DNA from: Candidatus Latescibacterota bacterium
GTDB lineage: Bacteria; Latescibacterota; UBA2968
Direction: 5' to 3'
NCBI GenBank assembly: GCA_038279365.1
Contig: JAYODI010000025.1
Location: 14,373 to 29,743 of the forward strand
DNA length: 15,371 bases
Shown: piece after piece, positions 2,995-14,642 of the stretch
Position numbering within the stretch: position 1 is the stretch's first letter
How the letters are laid out: each line of letters starts with the position of its first letter
The notes under the pieces: model-generated
What the model saw: the letters and a program-made list of their open reading frames with translations, nothing else
Database searches by the model: none
Told to the model about the DNA's origin: nothing
Translations under genes and position numbers: made by a program

Positions 2995-3013
2995 GTGACA
3001 TGTAAATTCGTAT

Positions 3014-3042
3014 AGAGACGCGAGTGTCTCACTTTAAGTGAG
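3014..3042. promoter_or_regulatory. Candidate upstream activator sites (overlapping dyads) for the PFOR sigma54 promoter
   Basis: GAGAC-N6-GTCTC (3015-3030) overlaps CTCACTT-T-AAGTGAG (3028-3042), about 80-105 bp upstream of the inferred start site. Confidence 0.5.
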
Positions 3043-3091: not shown

Positions 3092-3109
3092 TTTGGCATA
3101 GGGGTTGCT
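3092..3109 (+). promoter_or_regulatory. sigma54 (RpoN) -24/-12 promoter of the PFOR operon
   Basis: TTTGGCATAGGGGTTGCT has exact GG-N10-GC spacing and matches TGGCAC-N5-TTGCW. It is intergenic and correctly oriented. Confidence 0.82.
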
Positions 3110-3158
3110 TTTATGATTTTGTGATCGTTAGGGTATGAACTTTTTTCTTGGAGGTCTC

Positions 3159-6100
3159 ATGGAACGTCCCATGGTCACAATAGACGCCAATGAGGCAGCA
3201 GCATACGTGGCACATCAAGTGAATGATGTGATTGCTATTTATCCAATTACGCCTTCTTCGCCGATGGGTGAGTTGGCCGATGCGTATGCAGCTGGTGGAA
3301 AAACCAATATTTGGGGCACGGTGCCTTTGGTAATGGAAATGCAAAGCGAAGGTGGGGCTGCAGGAGCGGTGCATGGTGCTTTGCAAACAGGGTCTTTAAC
3401 GACAACTTTTACGGCGTCACAAGGGTTGTTGTTGATGATTCCCAATATGTATAAAATTGCCGGGGAACTAACCCCCACGGTTTTTCATGTGGCGGCACGA
3501 TCATTGGCCACTCAAGCCCTGTCTATTTTTGGCGATCACAGCGATGTAATGGCCACACGGCAAACAGGTTTTGCGCTGTTGGCTTCTAACTCTGTGCAAG
3601 AATCCATGGATTTTTCATTGATCTCACAAGCGGCAACCTTAGAATCGCGCGTACCATTTTTACATTTTTTTGATGGGTTTCGCACCTCTCATGAGGTGAT
3701 GAAAGTGGAGCAGTTGAATACCGAAGACATTCGGGCCATGATTGATGATAATTTTGTTCGTGCCCACCGAAACAGAGGATTATCACCCGATCACCCCGTG
3801 ATTCGTGGAACGGCACAAAACCCCGATGTGTATTTTCAAGGGCGAGAAGCATCAAATACATTCTATTTGAATTTGCCTGATATTGTGCAAAAAACGATGG
3901 ACAAATTTGCCACATTGGTAGGTCGGCAATATCACTTGTTTGATTATGTTGGGGCACCCGATGCCGAGCGGGTCATTGTGCTGATGGGTTCTGGTGCAGA
4001 AACTGCCCATGAAACGGTGGATTATTTGGTAGAACGGGGTGAAAAAGTAGGGATTTTGAAGGTGCGGCTATATCGGCCATTTTCGATCTCACATTTTATA
4101 GATGCTTTGCCGAAAAGCGTAAAATCTATTGCCGTATTGGATCGCACCAAGGAACCTGGCGGCATTGGCGAACCTATGTATTTGGATGTGGTGTCAGCTA
4201 TTCAAGAGTCGGATGTATTGGAAAGCAAACCCAAAGTGGTGGGTGGGCGATATGGTTTGTCATCCAAAGAATTTACCCCCGCCATGATTAAGGGCGTGTT
4301 TGATGAGTTGGCAAAACCGAAGCCTAAAAATCATTTTACGGTGGGTATTACAGACGATGTAACACATACGCATATTGACTATGATCGTTCTTTTTCGATT
4401 GAAGGATCCGATGTGTTTCGGGGCATGTTTTTTGGGTTGGGAGCAGATGGTACGGTGGGGGCAAATAAAAACTCGATCAAAATTATAGGTGAGTATACCA
4501 ACAATTTTGCGCAGGGTTATTTTGTTTACGATTCCAAAAAGTCGGGATCGATTACGACCTCACATCTGCGGTTTGGCAAAAAGCCCATTCGTTCGGCGTA
4601 TTTGATCGATCAGGCTGATTTTGTGGCGTGCCATCAATTTGTGTTTTTAGAAAAATACGATATGCTCAGATATGCGAGGAATGGTGGGACTTTTTTATTA
4701 AACAGCCCCTATGGTCCAGATGAAGTATGGCATCATTTGCCACGCAAGGTTCAAGAGCAAATTGTTGAAAAGGATTTAAAATTATTTGTGGTTGATGCCT
4801 ATGAAGTGGCCCGACAAACGGGTATGGGACAGCGCATTAATACGGTAATGCAAACGTGCTTTTTTGCCATTAGTGGGGTGTTGCCTCAAGATGAGGCCAT
4901 TGGATACATTCAAGACGCCATTCGCAAAACATATGGCAAAAAAGGCGAAAAAATAGTGGAAATGAATTTTGAAGCTGTTGAAAAGTCCGTTGAAAACTTG
5001 CATGCCGTTCAGGTACCCAGCCAAATCAGCAGCGTGATTGAAATGTTGCCCCCGGTGCCTGCAAATGCACCAGACTTTGTGCAACGTTTTACCGCGCCTG
5101 TTATTGCGGGTTTGGGAGATGATTTGCCGGTCAGTGCGATGTCTATAGATGGCACATTTCCTACGGCCACATCACAATGGGAAAAACGCAACATCGCACT
5201 TGAAGTACCGGTTTGGGATATGGATGCGTGTATTCAATGCAACAAATGTGCTTTGATATGCCCCCATGCATGCATTCGTCCTAAAATTTATGACGAAGCA
5301 CATTTGGAAAATGCCCCCGATACGTTTAAGTCGGTGGATGCCAAATCGCGTGAATTTAAAGGCATGAAATATACGTTGCAGGTTGCGGTTGAAGATTGTA
5401 CGGGGTGTGGTTTGTGTGTTCATTTTTGTCCAGCAAAGAACAAGTCACAAACAAGCCTCAAGGCGATTAATATGTCTGCCCAAGAACCGATCCGTGATAC
5501 GGAACGAAAAAATTATCAATTCTTTCTCAATTTGCCTGAGTTAGATCGCCGGCAAGTGAAGATGAATACGGTGCGCGACTCACAACTGTTGCAACCTTTG
5601 TTTGAATATTCGGGGGCTTGTGCAGGGTGTGGGGAAACACCTTATCTCAAATTGGTCAGTCAATTTTTTGGTGACCGAGCCATGGTGGCCAACGCAACGG
5701 GATGTTCTTCCATTTATGGTGGCAATTTACCCACCACACCTTGGGCTACTGATGGCAAAGGCCGAGGACCTGCTTGGGCAAACTCCTTGTTTGAAGACAA
5801 TGCCGAGTTTGGTTTGGGATATCGTTTAACACTGGACAAACGTATGGAATATGCCCAAGAATTGGTGCATCGATTGGCCGATGTCTTGGGGGCTCAGTTG
5901 GTTGATGGTTTGTTACATGCGCTACAAAAGGACGAAGCCGATATTTTTGAACAACGCCAACGTGTGGAAGCGGTTAAAGAAAAATTGGCTGGTGTAGCAA
6001 GTGATGATGCACGTGAGCTATTAGATGTGGCCGATGCGTTGGTCAAAAAAAGTGTGTGGATTGTGGGCGGAGATGGGTGGGCATATGACATTGGTTATGG

Positions 6101-6728
6101 CGGATTAGACCATGTTATGGCATCTGGGCGCAATGTGAACATCTTGGTGTTAGACACCGAAGTGTATTCCAACACGGGCGGTCAAATGTCAAAATCGACC
6201 CCACGTGCTGCCGTGGCCAAGTTTGCGGCTGGTGGCAAGCCCACGCCAAAGAAAGATTTGGCACTGATGGCGATGAGTTATGGCAATGTGTATGTGGCAC
6301 GTGTGGCAATGGGTGCAAATGATATGCAAACTGTGCGTGCGCTCTTAGAAGCCGAAGCCTATGATGGGCCCTCGTTGGTCATCGCCTATTCGCAATGTAT
6401 TGCCCACGGGATTAATATGAGCACGGGTACTGATCAACAAAAAGCTGCGGTTGATTCTGGGCATTGGGTGTTGATGCGATACAATCCTGAGCGGGCAATG
6501 GCGGGCGAAAACCCATTGCTACTGGATTCGAAAGCGCCCAAAATGAAGTTTAAAGAATATGCCTTAAGTGAAGCGCGCTATCACATGTTGGCGCGTAGCA
6601 AACCTGATGCATCTGAGGCGTTAATGGTGTTGGCTCAACGTGATGTGGATACGCGCTGGCGATATTATGAGCAAATGGCGAGCATGCATTTTGGCGAAAA
6701 TGGAAAAACACCATCCGAGAAGGCTTAG
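3159..6728 (+). CDS. nifJ: Pyruvate:ferredoxin (flavodoxin) oxidoreductase, single-chain type
   Basis: YPITP, MQSEGGAAG, GLGADGTVGANK, two ferredoxin motifs (CIQCNKCALICP, CTGCGLCVHFCP), ACAGCGE, and TPP motif GGDGWAYDIG...YSNTGGQ. Start moved to ATG 3159, which follows a GGAGG RBS. Confidence 0.97.
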   Translation: MERPMVTIDANEAAAYVAHQVNDVIAIYPITPSSPMGELADAYAAGGKTNIWGTVPLVMEMQSEGGAAGAVHGALQTGSLTTTFTASQGLLLMIPNMYKIAGELTPTVFHVAARSLATQALSIFGDHSDVMATRQTGFALLASNSVQESMDFSLISQAATLESRVPFLHFFDGFRTSHEVMKVEQLNTEDIRAMIDDNFVRAHRNRGLSPDHPVIRGTAQNPDVYFQGREASNTFYLNLPDIVQKTMDKFATLVGRQYHLFDYVGAPDAERVIVLMGSGAETAHETVDYLVERGEKVGILKVRLYRPFSISHFIDALPKSVKSIAVLDRTKEPGGIGEPMYLDVVSAIQESDVLESKPKVVGGRYGLSSKEFTPAMIKGVFDELAKPKPKNHFTVGITDDVTHTHIDYDRSFSIEGSDVFRGMFFGLGADGTVGANKNSIKIIGEYTNNFAQGYFVYDSKKSGSITTSHLRFGKKPIRSAYLIDQADFVACHQFVFLEKYDMLRYARNGGTFLLNSPYGPDEVWHHLPRKVQEQIVEKDLKLFVVDAYEVARQTGMGQRINTVMQTCFFAISGVLPQDEAIGYIQDAIRKTYGKKGEKIVEMNFEAVEKSVENLHAVQVPSQISSVIEMLPPVPANAPDFVQRFTAPVIAGLGDDLPVSAMSIDGTFPTATSQWEKRNIALEVPVWDMDACIQCNKCALICPHACIRPKIYDEAHLENAPDTFKSVDAKSREFKGMKYTLQVAVEDCTGCGLCVHFCPAKNKSQTSLKAINMSAQEPIRDTERKNYQFFLNLPELDRRQVKMNTVRDSQLLQPLFEYSGACAGCGETPYLKLVSQFFGDRAMVANATGCSSIYGGNLPTTPWATDGKGRGPAWANSLFEDNAEFGLGYRLTLDKRMEYAQELVHRLADVLGAQLVDGLLHALQKDEADIFEQRQRVEAVKEKLAGVASDDARELLDVADALVKKSVWIVGGDGWAYDIGYGGLDHVMASGRNVNILVLDTEVYSNTGGQMSKSTPRAAVAKFAAGGKPTPKKDLALMAMSYGNVYVARVAMGANDMQTVRALLEAEAYDGPSLVIAYSQCIAHGINMSTGTDQQKAAVDSGHWVLMRYNPERAMAGENPLLLDSKAPKMKFKEYALSEARYHMLARSKPDASEALMVLAQRDVDTRWRYYEQMASMHFGENGKTPSEKA

Positions 6729-6860: not shown

Positions 6861-7853
6861 ATGGACTTAACCACAACATATATGGGCATGACACTTAAAA
6901 ACCCGCTTGTGGCATCGGCATCGCCGTTGTCGCGTGAAGTTTCAAATGTGCGTGCTATGGAAGATGCTGGCATTGCGGGGGTGGTGATGTATTCGCTCTT
7001 TGAAGAGCAAATTGCTCACGAAACGGCAGAAGTAGACCATTACTTGAGTTATGGTACAGAGAGTTTTGCCGAAGCCTTGGATTATTTCCCCGAACCCGAT
7101 ATTTATCATCGTGGCCCAGATGAATACTTGGATCATATTCGACGATTAAAGGATGCGGTGGATATCCCTGTTATTGCCAGTTTAAACGGTACGTCATCGG
7201 GGGGGTGGACGCGATATGCCCAATTGATGGAAGAGGCCGGTGCCGATGCCTTGGAGCTCAATGTGTATCATATTCCCACCGATCCTACGGTGGGGGCGGC
7301 ACAAGTTGAACAAATGTACTTAAATGTTTTGACAGATGTCAAAAGTCAGGTATCTATTCCGGTGGCGATCAAATTAAGCCCCTATTTTAGTGCGATGGCA
7401 GCTATGGCTCGTCAGTTGGATTTGGCAGGCGCTGATGCTTTGGTTTTGTTTAACCGATTTTATCAGCCTGACTTTGATTTGGAAAACTTGGATGTGGTTT
7501 CGAATGTGATTTTGAGCACGCCAATAGCCGCGCGATTGCCCTTGCGATGGATTGCAATTTTACACGGACGTATTTCTGCCGATTTGGCTGCCACCAGTGG
7601 GGTACACAACGCGGAAGATGTGCTTAAGATGTTGATGGCTGGGGCAAATGTAACGATGATGTGCTCGGCTTTGTTGCGCAATGGCATCGGACATGCGTGG
7701 CGTGTATTGGAAGATTTGAGAACATGGATGGGTGAACGAGAATATGTTTCTGTGGCTCAATTACAAGGGAGTATGAGCCAAAAATCTTGTGGCGACCCCA
7801 GCGCTTATGAACGTGCCAACTATATGCGGGCGCTCAATACGTATAAGATGTAG
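6861..7853 (+). CDS. Dihydroorotate dehydrogenase-like FMN protein (DHOD-like family found beside PFOR)
   Basis: AGAGGAG RBS. MDLTTTYMGMTLKNPLVASASP, SLFEEQI, IPVIASLNG, GADALELN, PVAIKLSPYF, LVLFNRFYQPD, AYERANY. Lacks the class-1 SCPN catalytic motif. Confidence 0.9.
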   Translation: MDLTTTYMGMTLKNPLVASASPLSREVSNVRAMEDAGIAGVVMYSLFEEQIAHETAEVDHYLSYGTESFAEALDYFPEPDIYHRGPDEYLDHIRRLKDAVDIPVIASLNGTSSGGWTRYAQLMEEAGADALELNVYHIPTDPTVGAAQVEQMYLNVLTDVKSQVSIPVAIKLSPYFSAMAAMARQLDLAGADALVLFNRFYQPDFDLENLDVVSNVILSTPIAARLPLRWIAILHGRISADLAATSGVHNAEDVLKMLMAGANVTMMCSALLRNGIGHAWRVLEDLRTWMGEREYVSVAQLQGSMSQKSCGDPSAYERANYMRALNTYKM

Positions 7854-7873: not shown

Positions 7874-7909
7874 AAAACCGCCGAAGCATCATGCTTTGGC
7901 GGTTTTTTT
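7874..7909 (+). terminator. Intrinsic terminator (possibly bidirectional) after the PFOR/DHOD-like operon
   Basis: AAAACCGCCGAAGCA-tca-TGCTTTGGCGGTTTT stem running into T7. Confidence 0.9.
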
Positions 7910-8038
7910 GTTATTGTGACCAAGATTGATTTTTTGTGGGACAACACCGTCACAGGATGATCAATGATTGGAAATGTGATAATTTTTATAAGGTATTAAA
8001 AAATAACATTTTAATTGTTTTGGGTGGCGTGATTTTTG

Positions 8039-8056
8039 TTTGGCACAGGGGTTGCG
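8039..8056 (+). promoter_or_regulatory. sigma54 (RpoN) -24/-12 promoter upstream of the TonB gene
   Basis: TTTGGCACAGGGGTTGCG is an exact TGGCAC-N5-TTGC match and is 16/17 identical to the element at 3092-3108. Confidence 0.82.
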
Positions 8057-8106
8057 TTGGTTATGGGTGTCCGAGGTGGTCATATTATGATGTGAAGGAG
8101 GGTCTC

Positions 8107-8895
8107 ATGGTACTGGAAACTGTAAAACAACCTGAGATGGACGAATTGTCAAAAGGACATTCGTCAGAGGATAGAGGGGCTGAAAGCCACGGTGCACATT
8201 CAAATGATGTTTCGTCAAAGATATGGATTACTCAGGACGTGGTTCGAGAGAAGCAGCCTTTTGCTGATTTGCGTCAGACCTACCGAAAAGTGATGGGCAT
8301 TTGTGTGAGCATCACTTTTGTTTTGCACACTGCTGTTGCGGTGGCTTTTCCAACATTTGTATCTGACAGAAGAGAAATTAAGAAGGTGCAGCATGTGATT
8401 GAGGTAGAAAACTTACCCGAAACACAACAAATGAAACGGCCTCCTCCGCCACCAAGACCTGCTGTTCCAATTGAGACCGAAAGTACGGATGTTCCCGATG
8501 ATGTGACCATAGAATCAACGGATCTCGACTTTGATGATGCGCAAGTAGATTTGCCACCGCCACCTCCTCCTGGCAGTGCCGATGAAGAAGTAGAAGAAGA
8601 GATCGTTGAATTTTGGGCTGTTGAACAAGTACCAGAACCCGTAAAACAGGTGGCGCCAGAGTATCCTGAAGTGGCGCGTAAAGCGGGTTTGACAGGTACC
8701 GTTTTTGTGGAATTTACAGTGGGCAAAGACGGGCTTGTCAAAGGTGCACGTGTTGTGCGTGGGCCCACCATTTTCCACGATGCTGCACTGGCTGCCGTTT
8801 TTCAATTTGTATTTAAACCTGCCATGCAAAATGACAAACCCGTGAGTGTACGCATGACGCAACCGATCCGATTCCGTCTTAAAGGCGCAGAGTAG
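8107..8895 (+). CDS. tonB: Energy transducer TonB family protein
   Basis: ATG 8107 follows AAGGAGGG (the ORF-track start at 7936 runs through the promoter). One TM helix with His (GICVSITFVLHTAVAVAF), Pro-rich/acidic linker (RPPPPPRP, LPPPPPP, DEEVEEE), and TonB_C domain (PEYPEVARKAGLTGTVFVEFTVGKDG...FKPAMQNDKPV...PIRFRL). Confidence 0.9.
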   Translation: MVLETVKQPEMDELSKGHSSEDRGAESHGAHSNDVSSKIWITQDVVREKQPFADLRQTYRKVMGICVSITFVLHTAVAVAFPTFVSDRREIKKVQHVIEVENLPETQQMKRPPPPPRPAVPIETESTDVPDDVTIESTDLDFDDAQVDLPPPPPPGSADEEVEEEIVEFWAVEQVPEPVKQVAPEYPEVARKAGLTGTVFVEFTVGKDGLVKGARVVRGPTIFHDAALAAVFQFVFKPAMQNDKPVSVRMTQPIRFRLKGAE

Positions 8896-8910
8896 GCTAA
8901 AGGATTCTCA

Positions 8911-9528
8911 ATGGATCAGCTCTACGAAATTCAATATAAACGGCCCTGCCGCACCAAATTTTGTAAAGGTTGCACAAAAGGATTGTCGATTGGCGATCAT
9001 GTGGTGTTAGAGAAACAAGGGGAAGTGGGGACTGTGGTTTGGAAAGGGCAAATCGACGATCCTCAAAGCACACCCAGCGATGATGAGGCCATTCGACCCG
9101 CATCGACTTTTGATGATGATTTGGCTTTGGATATCAAGCAGAAGGAACGGGCTGCATTTGACTTGTTCTTAGAAAAAATAGAAGAGCACGATTTGCCCAT
9201 GAAACCTGTAGGTGTTGCTTGGGATATGCAAGGCAATACCATCACGTTTTATTTTACGGCCCATAAACGTGTCGATTTTAGGGCTTTGGTCAGAGATCTT
9301 GCCCATGTGTATCATCGCCGTATTGAATTGAGGCAAATAAGTCCGCGTGTTGAGGCACAGATGATGGGCGGGTGTGGGTCTTGTGGGCGCGAACTGTGTT
9401 GTTCAAGTTTTATTGAAAAACCTCAAACGGTGCCTTCGCAAATTGCGCAATCGCAGACAACTTCGCAGAATCTTTCAAAATTGGTAGGTGTATGTGGGCA
9501 GTTGAAGTGTTGTTTGAGATATGAGTAG
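8911..9528 (+). CDS. PSP1-domain protein, RicT/YaaT-like Fe-S regulatory subunit
   Basis: FYFTAHKRVDFRALVRDLA...RIELRQI (PSP1 signature), GGCGSCGRELCC, KLVGVCGQLKCCLRYE. Starts 15 bp after the tonB stop. Confidence 0.88.
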   Translation: MDQLYEIQYKRPCRTKFCKGCTKGLSIGDHVVLEKQGEVGTVVWKGQIDDPQSTPSDDEAIRPASTFDDDLALDIKQKERAAFDLFLEKIEEHDLPMKPVGVAWDMQGNTITFYFTAHKRVDFRALVRDLAHVYHRRIELRQISPRVEAQMMGGCGSCGRELCCSSFIEKPQTVPSQIAQSQTTSQNLSKLVGVCGQLKCCLRYE

Positions 9529-9582
9529 CGTGTTTTTCTATGGGTTGGATCAGGGTGCATTGGATTGCGAAAGGTGATCAAA

Positions 9583-10452
9583 ATGATACAAGGGAAACAG
9601 GCAACGGGTGGTGACTTAAATGTTTATTTTCAAGATGTGCGCAAAACACATCCATTAAGTCGCGAAGAAGAGCAGATGCTTTCTGCCCGCATCAAAAATG
9701 GCAATTTAAAGGCCCGAAATCAATTGGTAACTGCAAATTTGCGCTTTGCCTTAGATGTGGCCAAACGGTATCAGGGGCGTGGTTTGCCATTGGATGATCT
9801 TGTTAGTGCGGCAAATTTTGGCCTTATCGAAGCGGCAAAACGATTTGATGGGCAAAACGGGGTGCGTTTTATCACCTATGCCGTTTGGTGGATTCGGCGA
9901 TACATTCTTAAAGCGCTTTCGGGTGAACAACATTTGATCCATTTGCCTGGGCATATGGTTGATCTTTTGAGCAAGGTGCAACGCGTTGCACGAGATCTGC
10001 AACAGCAATTAGAGCGTGTGCCCACACCCATCGAGATTGCAGAACAAATGGAAGAATCGGTTACTCAGGTGCAATTGGCATTGGAAAGCAACCGCGATGT
10101 TTGTTCGTATGATGATATGGGGAGTGAGCAAGATTGCAGCTTGTTGGATAAAATACCCGATCCTGGTGCAGAAGATATGCTGGAACCGGTAGAACAAATC
10201 GGCCAAACTGAGGAAGTAGATTTGTTGCTGTCGTCTTTAACACAACGCGAAGCCGATGTGGTGCGCAAGTATTATGGTTTGGATGGGCTGGGTGGCGATA
10301 ATTTGGCCGAGATAGGCCGCGAATTGGATTTGAGCCGTGAACGGGTGCGCCAAATTAAAACGTCGGCGTTAAAGCACCTAAAAGTGCGTGCAAGAAGCTT
10401 GTATCGTCAGGCCGATTGGTCGGGAGAGTCGGTTGCCACATCACATGCTTAA
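9583..10452 (+). CDS. RNA polymerase sigma70-family factor, RpoD/SigA-like without region 1.1 (probable alternative paralog)
   Basis: AAGGTGA RBS before ATG 9583. Region 1.2 YFQDVRKTHPLSREEE, region 2 LVTANLRF...AKRYQGRGL...GLIEAAKRFD...RFITYAVWWIR, region 4 LAEIGRELDLSRERVRQI. Confidence 0.92.
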   Translation: MIQGKQATGGDLNVYFQDVRKTHPLSREEEQMLSARIKNGNLKARNQLVTANLRFALDVAKRYQGRGLPLDDLVSAANFGLIEAAKRFDGQNGVRFITYAVWWIRRYILKALSGEQHLIHLPGHMVDLLSKVQRVARDLQQQLERVPTPIEIAEQMEESVTQVQLALESNRDVCSYDDMGSEQDCSLLDKIPDPGAEDMLEPVEQIGQTEEVDLLLSSLTQREADVVRKYYGLDGLGGDNLAEIGRELDLSRERVRQIKTSALKHLKVRARSLYRQADWSGESVATSHA

Positions 10453-10469
10453 GGTGATGCCCATAACAC

Positions 10470-10514
10470 ATATGCCCCATTGTCTTTAACTGGACAGTGG
10501 GGCATGTTTTTTTT
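10470..10514 (+). terminator. Intrinsic terminator after the sigma factor gene
   Basis: ATGCCCCATTGTC (10472-10484) / GACAGTGGGGCAT (10493-10505) stem with one G-U pair, followed by G and T8. Confidence 0.9.
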
Positions 10515-10569
10515 AGGTTGGACGTGTTCTCGGCGTTTTTTATTGGGTTCTTAATGAGAGGATAACCCC

Positions 10570-12473: not shown

Positions 12474-13490
12474 TTAAAAGTCGAGAAAGACCTGGGCGGG
12501 TTTGCCCGTTTCGATGGATTCGATTATGGCACAACATACAGCTACAGATCGGGCACCATCTGTGGCGTTGATCAGGGGTGTTTGATCTGTTTCGATGCAT
12601 GTGAGAAAATGGTCGAGCACTTGGGGGCATGGGTGATCTTCGGGTTGAATGGGAATGGGCAATTCTGAAAAGTCGTCCACGTGAGGTATGCCACCCACAA
12701 AAAGTTTGTTTTTAATCACACTACCCTTTGTGCCATGATAACCAAAGTTGAGATTATACGGAATTTCGGCCCCACAAGAAACCAGACATTTGCCCACAGC
12801 ACCCGATTGGAATTTGAGGCTGGCAATGACGGTATCGTACCACGGTGCATTGGGAATGTTTTTGTTGGTGCCATAGGCACTGACTTCGATTATTTCGCCA
12901 ACAATCCAACGCATAAGGTCTAATGGGTGGCAAGCCCCACCCACAATGGGCAATTGTCCTTCTTGTTTGGCGTCCATCCACCACTCATGTCCTGGAAGGG
13001 GCAAGAAGGGTTTGAGATTGTGGACATAATCGCCTTCAACAAAACACGCTTCGCCCAATGTACCTGATTGCACAAGGTGGTGAATGGTTTCAAATAAAGC
13101 ACTAAAACGCGCGCTTTGCCCGACCATGACCTTTTTATCGGATGCTTTGGACGCATCGACAATCTTTTGACAGTCTGCAACGGTGACTGCCAAAGGTTTT
13201 TCGACAAAAAGGTGTTTGCCATTTTCAAGAGCGGCAAGGGCCTGGGTCACGTGTTGTGAATTGGGCGTGCACAAGTAAACAATGTCTATGGCATCATTGG
13301 TGATAACATCATGATAATCTGTTGTGATGTATTGCGCATGATAAGTGGTCTGCAAGTTTTGAGCAATGGGTTGGCTACGGGGGGTGCTGCAAATGGTATG
13401 TAACTGGGCACGTGGATGGCTGGCAATGGCTTTCATATGTTCACCACCAATATAGCCTGTGCCAATAACGGCAATGTTGTGTGTGGGCAT
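12474..13490 (-). CDS. Gfo/Idh/MocA family NAD(P)-dependent oxidoreductase
   Basis: True start ATG 13490 after AAAGAGGT. IAVIGTGYIG, IDIVYLCTPNSQH, GKHLFVEKPLA, ACHPLD. Confidence 0.92.
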   Translation of the reverse strand: MPTHNIAVIGTGYIGGEHMKAIASHPRAQLHTICSTPRSQPIAQNLQTTYHAQYITTDYHDVITNDAIDIVYLCTPNSQHVTQALAALENGKHLFVEKPLAVTVADCQKIVDASKASDKKVMVGQSARFSALFETIHHLVQSGTLGEACFVEGDYVHNLKPFLPLPGHEWWMDAKQEGQLPIVGGACHPLDLMRWIVGEIIEVSAYGTNKNIPNAPWYDTVIASLKFQSGAVGKCLVSCGAEIPYNLNFGYHGTKGSVIKNKLFVGGIPHVDDFSELPIPIQPEDHPCPQVLDHFLTCIETDQTPLINATDGARSVAVCCAIIESIETGKPAQVFLDF

Positions 13491-13520
13491 TGTGACCTCT
13501 TTGGAAACGTGTCGGTGTGG

Positions 13521-13562
13521 TTTTGCAATATAGAAGTGAAATGCAAAAATAAAAAAGTGAAA
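13521..13562. promoter_or_regulatory. Candidate operator(s) in the divergent intergenic region
   Basis: TTTTGCA-N14-TGCAAAA (13521-13548) and direct repeat AAGTGAAA at 13534 and 13555. Confidence 0.45.
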
Positions 13563-13604
13563 ATTGAGCGTTGATTTGGGCATGGGTATTGGATAGGAGT
13601 TGGT

Positions 13605-14642
13605 ATGGCAAAAATTCGGTTTGCGTTGGTAGGAGCTGGCATGATTGGGCAGTTGCATGCGCGGGTTATTTCTGAAATGGCGGATGCAGAGTTGGTGGCT
13701 GTGTGTTCTCGCGATTTGGAACGGGCAAAAGCGCTGACGGATCAATATGGGGGTGAACCCACCGTAAATTTTGAGGCGATGATTGCGCGTGAGGATATTG
13801 ATGCGGTTTCGATTTGTACTGCCAGTGGCGAACACGCCTTGTTTGGTATTCCTGCAGCACAAGCGGGCAAACATGTGTTGGTTGAAAAACCAATTGAGAT
13901 ATCGTTGGAAAAAGCCGATGCACTGATTCAAGCCTGCCAGGACCACGGTGTCAAATTGGGTGTGATCTTTCAGTTGCGATTTTTGGATGGGTCGCGTGAA
14001 GTGAAAGAGGCAGTGGAGAGGGGGGTGATTGGCAAGTTGGTGATGGCTGATTGTTATATGAAATTTTATCGGCCTCAGGAATATTATGACAACTCCCGTT
14101 GGAAAGGCACTGTGGCCTTAGATGGGGGTGGGGCCTTGATCAATCAGGGGATTCATGGTTTGGATTTGTTGCTGCACTTGGCAGGTGATGTGGCTTCTGT
14201 AAAAGCATATACGGCCATTTTAGCCCATGAAAATATTGAGGTAGAAGATACCTGTGTGGCTTGTGTCAAATATGCCAATGGCGCTTTGGGTGTTATTCAG
14301 GCAACCACTTCGATACATCCTGATTTTCAACAGCGCATCGAACTACATGGGACAAAGGGTACAATTGTTTTGGAAGGGACTGAAGAAACGTGGGTTTCTC
14401 ACTGGGAGACGTTTGATGGGGGAAAACGGGATGTAGAAAGGCGGGAAGTACACGTTTCTGGTGCACATGCCGTATTGGAAGAAGGAGGCGAAGGGCATCG
14501 GCGACAAATGGATGATTTTATTACATCTATTCAAAATGATGGCCAACCGCAGGTCAATGGGGCAGAGGGCAGGCGGTCTTTGGCCGTTGTCAGGGCGGTT
14601 TATGCCTCTGCGGCAACTGGCAATGAAACCCGTGTGGGGTGA
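13605..14642 (+). CDS. Gfo/Idh/MocA family NAD(P)-dependent oxidoreductase
   Basis: AGGAG RBS. FALVGAGMIG, IDAVSICTASGEH, GKHVLVEKP, WKGTVALDGGGALINQGIHGLD, IEVED. Confidence 0.93.
   Translation: MAKIRFALVGAGMIGQLHARVISEMADAELVAVCSRDLERAKALTDQYGGEPTVNFEAMIAREDIDAVSICTASGEHALFGIPAAQAGKHVLVEKPIEISLEKADALIQACQDHGVKLGVIFQLRFLDGSREVKEAVERGVIGKLVMADCYMKFYRPQEYYDNSRWKGTVALDGGGALINQGIHGLDLLLHLAGDVASVKAYTAILAHENIEVEDTCVACVKYANGALGVIQATTSIHPDFQQRIELHGTKGTIVLEGTEETWVSHWETFDGGKRDVERREVHVSGAHAVLEEGGEGHRRQMDDFITSIQNDGQPQVNGAEGRRSLAVVRAVYASAATGNETRVG

Follow-up and report, generated by a model that had tools for sequence, protein, structure and literature searches.

We analyzed a 15,371-nucleotide (nt) stretch of DNA from a Candidatus Latescibacterota bacterium (contig JAYODI010000025.1; the whole stretch is called the window below), in which a three-gene unit codes for a TonB paralog of 262 amino acids (aa), a PSP1/RicT protein of 205 aa and a sigma-70-family factor of 289 aa. 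The genes are co-oriented (positions 8107-10452) and separated by gaps of 15 and 54 bp, which hold with the starts placed at ATG 8107 (TonB) and ATG 9583 (sigma). Each start is preceded by a Shine-Dalgarno-like sequence (AGGAGG at ATG 8107, AAGGTG at ATG 9583), and the chosen starts agree with the lengths of the homologues (259-263 aa for TonB, 289 aa for sigma). A longer TonB open reading frame (ORF) from GTG-7936 was rejected in favor of ATG 8107, because it would engulf the promoter described below and would not match these lengths.

On its 5' side, the unit is bounded by the intrinsic terminator of the preceding operon, which encodes pyruvate:ferredoxin oxidoreductase (PFOR) and a dihydroorotate-dehydrogenase-like (DHOdh-like) protein. 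This terminator (7874-7910, + strand) consists of a 15-bp stem with a T-run, and its hairpin at 7874-7906 folds with -22.6 kcal/mol (z -6.6; 0/200 shuffles fold as well). A second intrinsic terminator, with a 16-bp stem and U8, closes the unit at 10470-10515 (+ strand; -27.4 kcal/mol; z -7.3; again, 0/200 shuffles fold as well). Inside 8107-10452, no terminator-like site was found on the + strand, and the PSP1-sigma gap folded no better than its own shuffles. ORFs, domains and starts thus agree with the gene order and gaps given in an original prediction made from the sequence alone, and the sigma54-type promoter and strong terminator that were said to bracket the unit were both recovered. The same holds for the partners described as missing. 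Pfam domains were found in 13/13 ORFs of the window, and ExbB/ExbD, TonB-dependent-receptor, Com_YlbF (RicA/RicF) and anti-sigma domains in 0/13; the gaps outside these ORFs are each at most 253 nt long.

The sigma54-type -24/-12 element, TGGCACAGGGGTTGCG, is located at 8041-8056 (+ strand). It contains an exact TGGCAC-N5-TTGC at 8041-8055, with a ten-base distance between the GG and GC doublets, and lies in a 253-nt intergenic gap, after the 7874-7906 terminator and 66 nt before ATG 8107. One exact match to TGGCAC-N5-TTGC was found in the window, with 0.10 expected and at least one in 20/200 shuffles. The generic sigma54 pattern was not enriched in the window, neither with one mismatch allowed (3 found versus 2.6 expected) nor with one to two mismatches. 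However, the window contains two copies of the 15-mer TGGCAYAGGGGTTGC, at 3094 and 8041 (0.14 expected; 1/200 shuffles reaches two), and because of this twin the 8041 site stands above chance.

The twin element, TGGCATAGGGGTTGCT (3094-3109, + strand), precedes the PFOR operon, 65 nt before ATG 3159. Both copies of TGGCAYAGGGGTTGC are located 3' of a terminator, their leaders to the ATG measure 65 nt (PFOR) and 66 nt (TonB), and the PFOR start context GGAGGTCTCATGG (ATG 3159) is nearly a copy of the TonB start context GGAGGGTCTCATGG. Since the 15-mer, the preceding terminator, the leader length and the ribosome-binding-site context are shared, we regard 3094 and 8041 as two predicted promoters of one regulon, and co-regulation is probable. 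This accords with one part of the proposal that the three genes act in step with PFOR, as the 15-mer is repeated there with its spacer included; a functional tie of RicT to the other two proteins, in contrast, found no support.

The 205-aa product of the second gene (8911-9528, + strand) belongs to the RicT/YaaT family of PSP1 proteins (PF04468, 86.9 bits; NF041131, 183.3 bits with a cut-off of 70). The cysteine motif CX4CCX30CX4CC, given as the RicT motif by Adusei-Danso et al. (PMC6751060), is intact at residues 158-201. The protein ends directly after the second Cys pair, and most homologues have 270-300 aa. Like RicT (YaaT) of Bacillus subtilis, it passes the family model and keeps the six cysteines, but it differs from it in its length of 205 aa, in ending after the second CC, in the lack of ricA/ricF in the window and in its phylum; a gene for RNase Y is likewise missing from the window. 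The C-terminal tail of the longer homologues is missing from the window protein as well as from its nearest relatives (204-212 aa); these shorter proteins end in ...CCLRYE.

We then compared the locus with relatives. A profile scan of genome contigs with the sigma alignment matched 601 stretches, 562 of which were confirmed; the best 80 were kept and mostly carry distant sigmas (Bacteroidota, Actinomycetota, Cyanobacteriota). When the three proteins of the unit were compared with these 80 loci by tblastn, sigma was found in all, TonB in one and PSP1 in none. The locus with TonB, L001 (a 5,682-bp contig), harbors TonB at 3529-4281 (64% identical) and, after 29 nt, sigma at 4311-5141 (55% identical), with no PSP1. 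It also contains one exact TGGCAC-N5-TTGC at 1130 (0.01 expected; 1/200 shuffles has one), which is preceded by a terminator at 899-920 and followed by genes for a 467-aa protein, a YceI-like protein, TonB and sigma. Between this site and sigma, no terminator-like site was found on the + strand. In the loci with DNA, the TonB-sigma pair is therefore downstream of a sigma54-type site in 2/2 cases, at different distances, and apart from the pair, all neighbors differ between the window and L001. A weak -24/-12-like match at 3522-3537 of L001 was rejected as a promoter, because it overlaps the TonB start codon. The 467-aa protein carries a signal peptide, ends in ...SFSF, showed no family match and looks like an outer-membrane barrel or porin-like protein. 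Downstream of the L001 sigma, a NapC/NirT-type cytochrome begins at 5334.

For a broader comparison, matches of different queries whose longest contigs have exactly equal size were used as a proxy for co-location. The match tables describe 90% clusters and sometimes omit even the contig of the window itself (64,021 bp), so a missing coincidence does not mean absence. TonB and sigma coincided for 13 sigma clusters, with sigma identity ranging from 98% down to 47% (shared sizes 4092, 6152, 22409, 22889, 58344, 217229, 29522, 3803, 4385, 3391, 69182, 22489 and 38722 bp). All three genes coincided at 22889, 217229 and 29522 bp, PSP1 and sigma at 19650 and 24902 bp, and TonB and PSP1 at 2994 bp. 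PSP1 joins the pair only in the nearest subclade, in which sigma is at least 72% identical; with PSP1 matches of 55-59% identity on 11,889- and 42,438-bp contigs, no TonB or sigma match coincided. Co-location of TonB and sigma was also not seen for P0035, a basal member of the sigma clade described below. Close matches of all three proteins (P0005, P0126 and P0252) bear Candidatus Latescibacteria (WS3) names.

These data suggest that the conserved unit is the TonB-sigma pair and not a TonB-PSP1-sigma triad. The idea of a single state-switch module built from TonB, RicT and sigma is thus not upheld, since PSP1 accompanies the pair only in the closest subclade and is absent from L001. The expectation that the gene order recurs in relatives proved right for two of the genes, with TonB directly before sigma in L001 and 13 co-located clusters, and failed for PSP1, which is not kept.

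That PSP1 comes and goes, and that neither a receptor nor exbBD is nearby in the window, would also suit an explanation in which TonB, RicT and sigma are neighbors by descent, co-transcribed but functionally unrelated, with TonB being the general TonB of the cell. Across 14 TonB/sigma pairs, the identities of the two proteins are correlated (Spearman 0.82; 0/2000 permutations reach this value; the fragmentary P0253/P0036 were left out), and such co-variation is expected of any two co-inherited genes and so fits any vertically inherited pair. However, TonB and sigma stay together at sigma identities between 98% and 47%, although their other neighbors differ between the window and L001, and the TonB proteins linked to sigma are a distinct long type. 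Mere neighborhood by descent is therefore unlikely in our view, although it retains some weight.

The distinction of TonB types is based on the following. The window TonB (8107-8895, + strand; PF03544, 76.1 bits with a cut-off of 24.6; TIGR01352, 52 bits with a cut-off of 27.1) comprises a variable cytoplasmic N-terminal extension of about 45 aa, one membrane helix, a Pro-rich linker and a C-terminal TonB_C domain. The membrane-helix His H74 (FVLH) is at least 90% conserved and nearly invariant in two TonB alignments; the functional weight of this His is known from H20 of Escherichia coli TonB. In a 120-row tree, 15/15 sigma-linked TonB proteins (window and L001 counted) fell into two neighboring groups of long proteins, and 0/79 rows of a clade of about 215 aa were sigma-linked. 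Members of this short clade include proteins labelled as Latescibacteria or Gemmatimonadetes, and several complete genomes are represented. Both types, long P0324 and short P0342, are present in one genome of 8,426,055 bp, and the two forms are therefore paralogs, which also speaks against the window TonB being the general one. The spacer of the window protein contains the Pro-rich runs RPPPPPRP and LPPPPPP. Across the 120 listed clusters, family identity is 55-67%, the linker PETRQIKRPPPPPRPAVPIETES-DVPDDVTIESTDLDFDD included. The linker is nearly invariant (IPETRQIKRPPPPPRPAVPIETES.DVPDDVTIESTDLDFDD) in these clusters (P0241-P0360), several of which represent complete genomes of 2.9-8.4 Mb; such conservation is unusual for TonB linkers, which normally vary.

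Only the sigma-linked TonB proteins bear the cytoplasmic extension of about 45 aa. Together with the tight linkage (29 nt in L001), this could mean that the long-form TonB is a membrane-tethered sigma regulator, the extension of which would hold or release sigma upon outer-membrane events. We consider this very unlikely, since the sequence of the extension is poorly conserved, no anti-sigma domain was detected, and PSP1 lies between the two genes in the window. A structure-based complex prediction for sigma with TonB residues 1-62 gave a score of 0.00, which is no answer, neither for nor against binding. To a related suggestion we likewise assign only a very small probability, namely that TonB and sigma would constitute a two-gene cell-surface signaling device of a type other than extracytoplasmic function (ECF), in which the extension would couple an outer-membrane partner or the proton-motive force to sigma without a FecR-type anti-sigma factor.

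The third gene (9583-10452, + strand) encodes a sigma-70-family factor with Pfam regions 1.2, 2, 3 and 4 and without region 1.1. None of the NCBIfam equivalog cut-offs was reached by this protein, nor were those of FliA/WhiG. Its scores were 181.5 bits (cut-off 555), 188.3 bits (cut-off 354) and 199.9 bits (cut-off 572) with the RpoD models NF004208, TIGR02393 and NF006666, respectively, and 208.6 bits (cut-off 378.7; the best) and 194.1 bits (cut-off 394) with the RpoS models (TIGR02394, NF004207). An ECF or cell-surface-signaling sigma was ruled out, as regions 1.2 and 3 are present and no FecR or receptor domain was found in the 13/13 ORFs. MzaA of the MZA anti-phage system was also rejected (190.8 versus 800 bits), because the match is confined to the sigma part of the model; PADLOC gave a partial match only. 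In the ESM Atlas, nothing beyond generic sigma clusters was found for the window sigma.

A FastTree phylogeny was calculated from 132 rows, comprising the window sigma, 115/120 listed matches (five of less than 240 aa were excluded) and the sigmas of 16/80 loci. The window sigma, P0001-P0037 and L001 formed one 36-row clade with a local Shimodaira-Hasegawa-like support of 100 and a stem of 0.48. The remaining 96 rows contained Flavobacteriaceae/Bacteroidales sigmas, short actinobacterial and cyanobacterial sigmas, P0077 (a Latescibacteria-labelled RpoD/SigA) and P0112. Characteristic residues also separate the clade from the others. After WWIR, R is present in 30/33 clade sequences having region 2.4, in contrast to Q in 80/83 others; in region 2.2, xAN is found in 35/35 clade sequences and xGN in 81/82 others, the window sigma having AAN versus EGN/AGN. 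Region 4.2 (RERVRQI) of the window sigma is unchanged versus the primary type. The longest contigs of P0035, which branches at the base of the clade, and of P0112, which does not belong to it, are equal in size (5,656,476 bp); this points to two sigma paralogs in one genome.

Relatives of the window sigma carry the automatic names 'RNA polymerase primary sigma factor' or 'RpoD/SigA', and the 15-kb window contains no second sigma gene. Furthermore, the primary sigma of Bacteroidota (Bacteroides; Vingadassalom et al.) is reportedly equally short and without region 1.1, so that shortness and the missing region 1.1 do not settle the class of a sigma factor. The window sigma could accordingly be the housekeeping factor of its lineage, short as in Bacteroidota, and the cluster an ordinary housekeeping gene order. 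Indeed, it resembles sigma A of Bacteroides fragilis in its similar length, the lack of region 1.1, the YAVWWIR sequence and an identity of about 40%, but it differs by its separate clade, by R for Q after WWIR and by AAN for EGN. The clade is separate from P0077 as well, which reaches 243.5 bits with the RpoD model NF004208, compared to 181.5 bits for the window sigma. In addition, one would not expect a housekeeping sigma gene to depend on a sigma54 promoter. A housekeeping role is therefore quite unlikely, and the window sigma is probably an alternative, non-housekeeping factor, as judged by its sequence. With a non-housekeeping sigma, a sigma54-to-sigma70-family cascade becomes plausible. 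The separate clade and WWIRR are in line with the original prediction on this point.

Taken together, we favor, with somewhat better than even confidence, a reading in which the operon is transcribed by sigma54-RNA polymerase and has a stable TonB-sigma core, into which ricT, coding for an Fe-S protein, was inserted in one subclade as a passenger, the sigma factor being second-tier. At 8041-8056, and likewise at the PFOR promoter, which is nearly the same, sigma54-RNA polymerase would be activated by an enhancer-binding protein, and the transcript would yield an alternative sigma that sends the polymerase to another regulon. The observed WWIRR in place of WWIRQ and AAN in place of EGN/AGN may imply that -10 preference and core interface differ. 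By analogy to HasB (see below), the co-produced TonB paralog, with ExbB/ExbD encoded elsewhere, would energize the outer-membrane transport of the new regulon. RicT would be a lineage-specific passenger.

Several points weigh against this reading. Only 1/80 loci, L001, belongs to the sigma clade, and none is from Latescibacterota (best 80 of 562), so that promoter and gene order were checked in one relative only. In that relative, TonB is 2.4 kb downstream of the sigma54-type site, with two other genes in between. Equal contig sizes show co-location, not adjacency or order. The exact -24/-12 match in the window is weak evidence if taken alone, and rpoN, an enhancer-binding protein, exbBD and a TonB-dependent receptor are absent from the 15-kb window. 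Sigma and TonB trees were calculated by FastTree only, and the tree position of P0035 was flagged as a long branch. The probable alternative status of sigma was derived from comparison with sigmas of other genomes. Finally, none of the clade sigmas in the list of 120 sigma matches comes from the genome with the long TonB P0324 (8,426,055 bp), and pairing of the long TonB with sigma is thus not obligatory.

Cascades in which sigma54 controls an alternative sigma are RpoN-RpoS in Borrelia and RpoN-FliA in flagellar hierarchies. As in these systems, a -24/-12 promoter precedes a sigma-70-family gene and one sigma would supply another. Unlike them, the window sigma is predicted to be co-transcribed with a TonB paralog (and RicT in this lineage), and it misses the RpoS and FliA/WhiG cut-offs. 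A dedicated TonB paralog encoded away from exbB-exbD and controlled by a sigma/anti-sigma pair is described for HasB in the has operon of Serratia marcescens (PMC3602595). In both the has operon and the window, a tonB paralog is unlinked to exbB-exbD and belongs to an operon with a connection to sigma-factor regulation. However, the has system lies beside genes for the receptor HasR and the hemophore and uses a sigma/anti-sigma cascade, whereas the window sigma is non-ECF and has no anti-sigma or receptor gene nearby.

Our literature searches found no description of a TonB-sigma pair or of Latescibacteria sigma factors. What sets the window apart from the known cascades and HasB is a TonB paralog paired with a sigma factor of regions 1.2 to 4, with no anti-sigma or receptor gene nearby. 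To our knowledge, Latescibacteria have no cultured representative and nothing is known of their regulation. If the favored reading is true, the sigma54-controlled TonB-sigma pair would provide a handle on the joint switching of envelope transport and transcription in Latescibacteria. It would also be a non-ECF addition to the known ties between TonB and sigma factors, and the twin promoter of PFOR offers a testable co-regulation hypothesis. That RicT appears as a lineage-specific insertion and not as part of a conserved module is a useful negative result.

Upstream of the -24/-12 sites, a candidate activator site was noticed. An inverted repeat, GTGAC...GTGGGACAA...GTCAC, is present at 7916-7953, some 105 nt upstream of the TonB -24 element, and inverted repeats of the form GTGA(GA)C...G(TC)TCAC are located 80-120 nt upstream of all three sites (window TonB, window PFOR and L001). 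This pattern, derived post hoc from these same three sites, matches only 2995-3032 and 7916-7953 in the window and 992-1033 in L001. GATTG and GTGGGACAA inside the repeat are common to the window TonB site and L001. Local alignment of the three upstream regions gave scores that were reached by 640, 92 and 278 of 1000 shuffles and was not significant. The inverted repeat is therefore a candidate enhancer-binding-protein site and a lead only.

The remaining ORFs of the window were assigned as follows. At the 5' end, a CitMHS transporter (10-1104), a histidine kinase with an N-terminal cyclic nucleotide monophosphate (cNMP)-binding domain (1117-2457) and a receiver-only response regulator (2454-2927) were recognized by Pfam. 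The ORFs of the kinase and the regulator overlap by 4 nt and lie directly 5' of the PFOR promoter; a sigma54-activator domain was found in neither of the two. PFOR is encoded by the ORF at 3135-6728 (+ strand; TIGR02176, 1888 bits), with ATG 3159 as the likely true start, and is directly followed in the same operon by the DHOdh-like gene (6861-7853; NF005741, 497.6 bits). No match to Rfam families was detected in the window. On the 3' side of the three-gene unit, a xylose-isomerase-like TIM-barrel protein, three GFO/IDH/MocA oxidoreductases and the start of a fatty-acid desaturase are encoded. One of the oxidoreductase ORFs, located on the minus strand (12474-13946; 490 aa), overlaps a plus-strand oxidoreductase ORF (13605-14642) by about 340 nt. 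Because of this overlap, and because the first Pfam domain starts at residue 157, the true start of the 490-aa ORF is probably internal.

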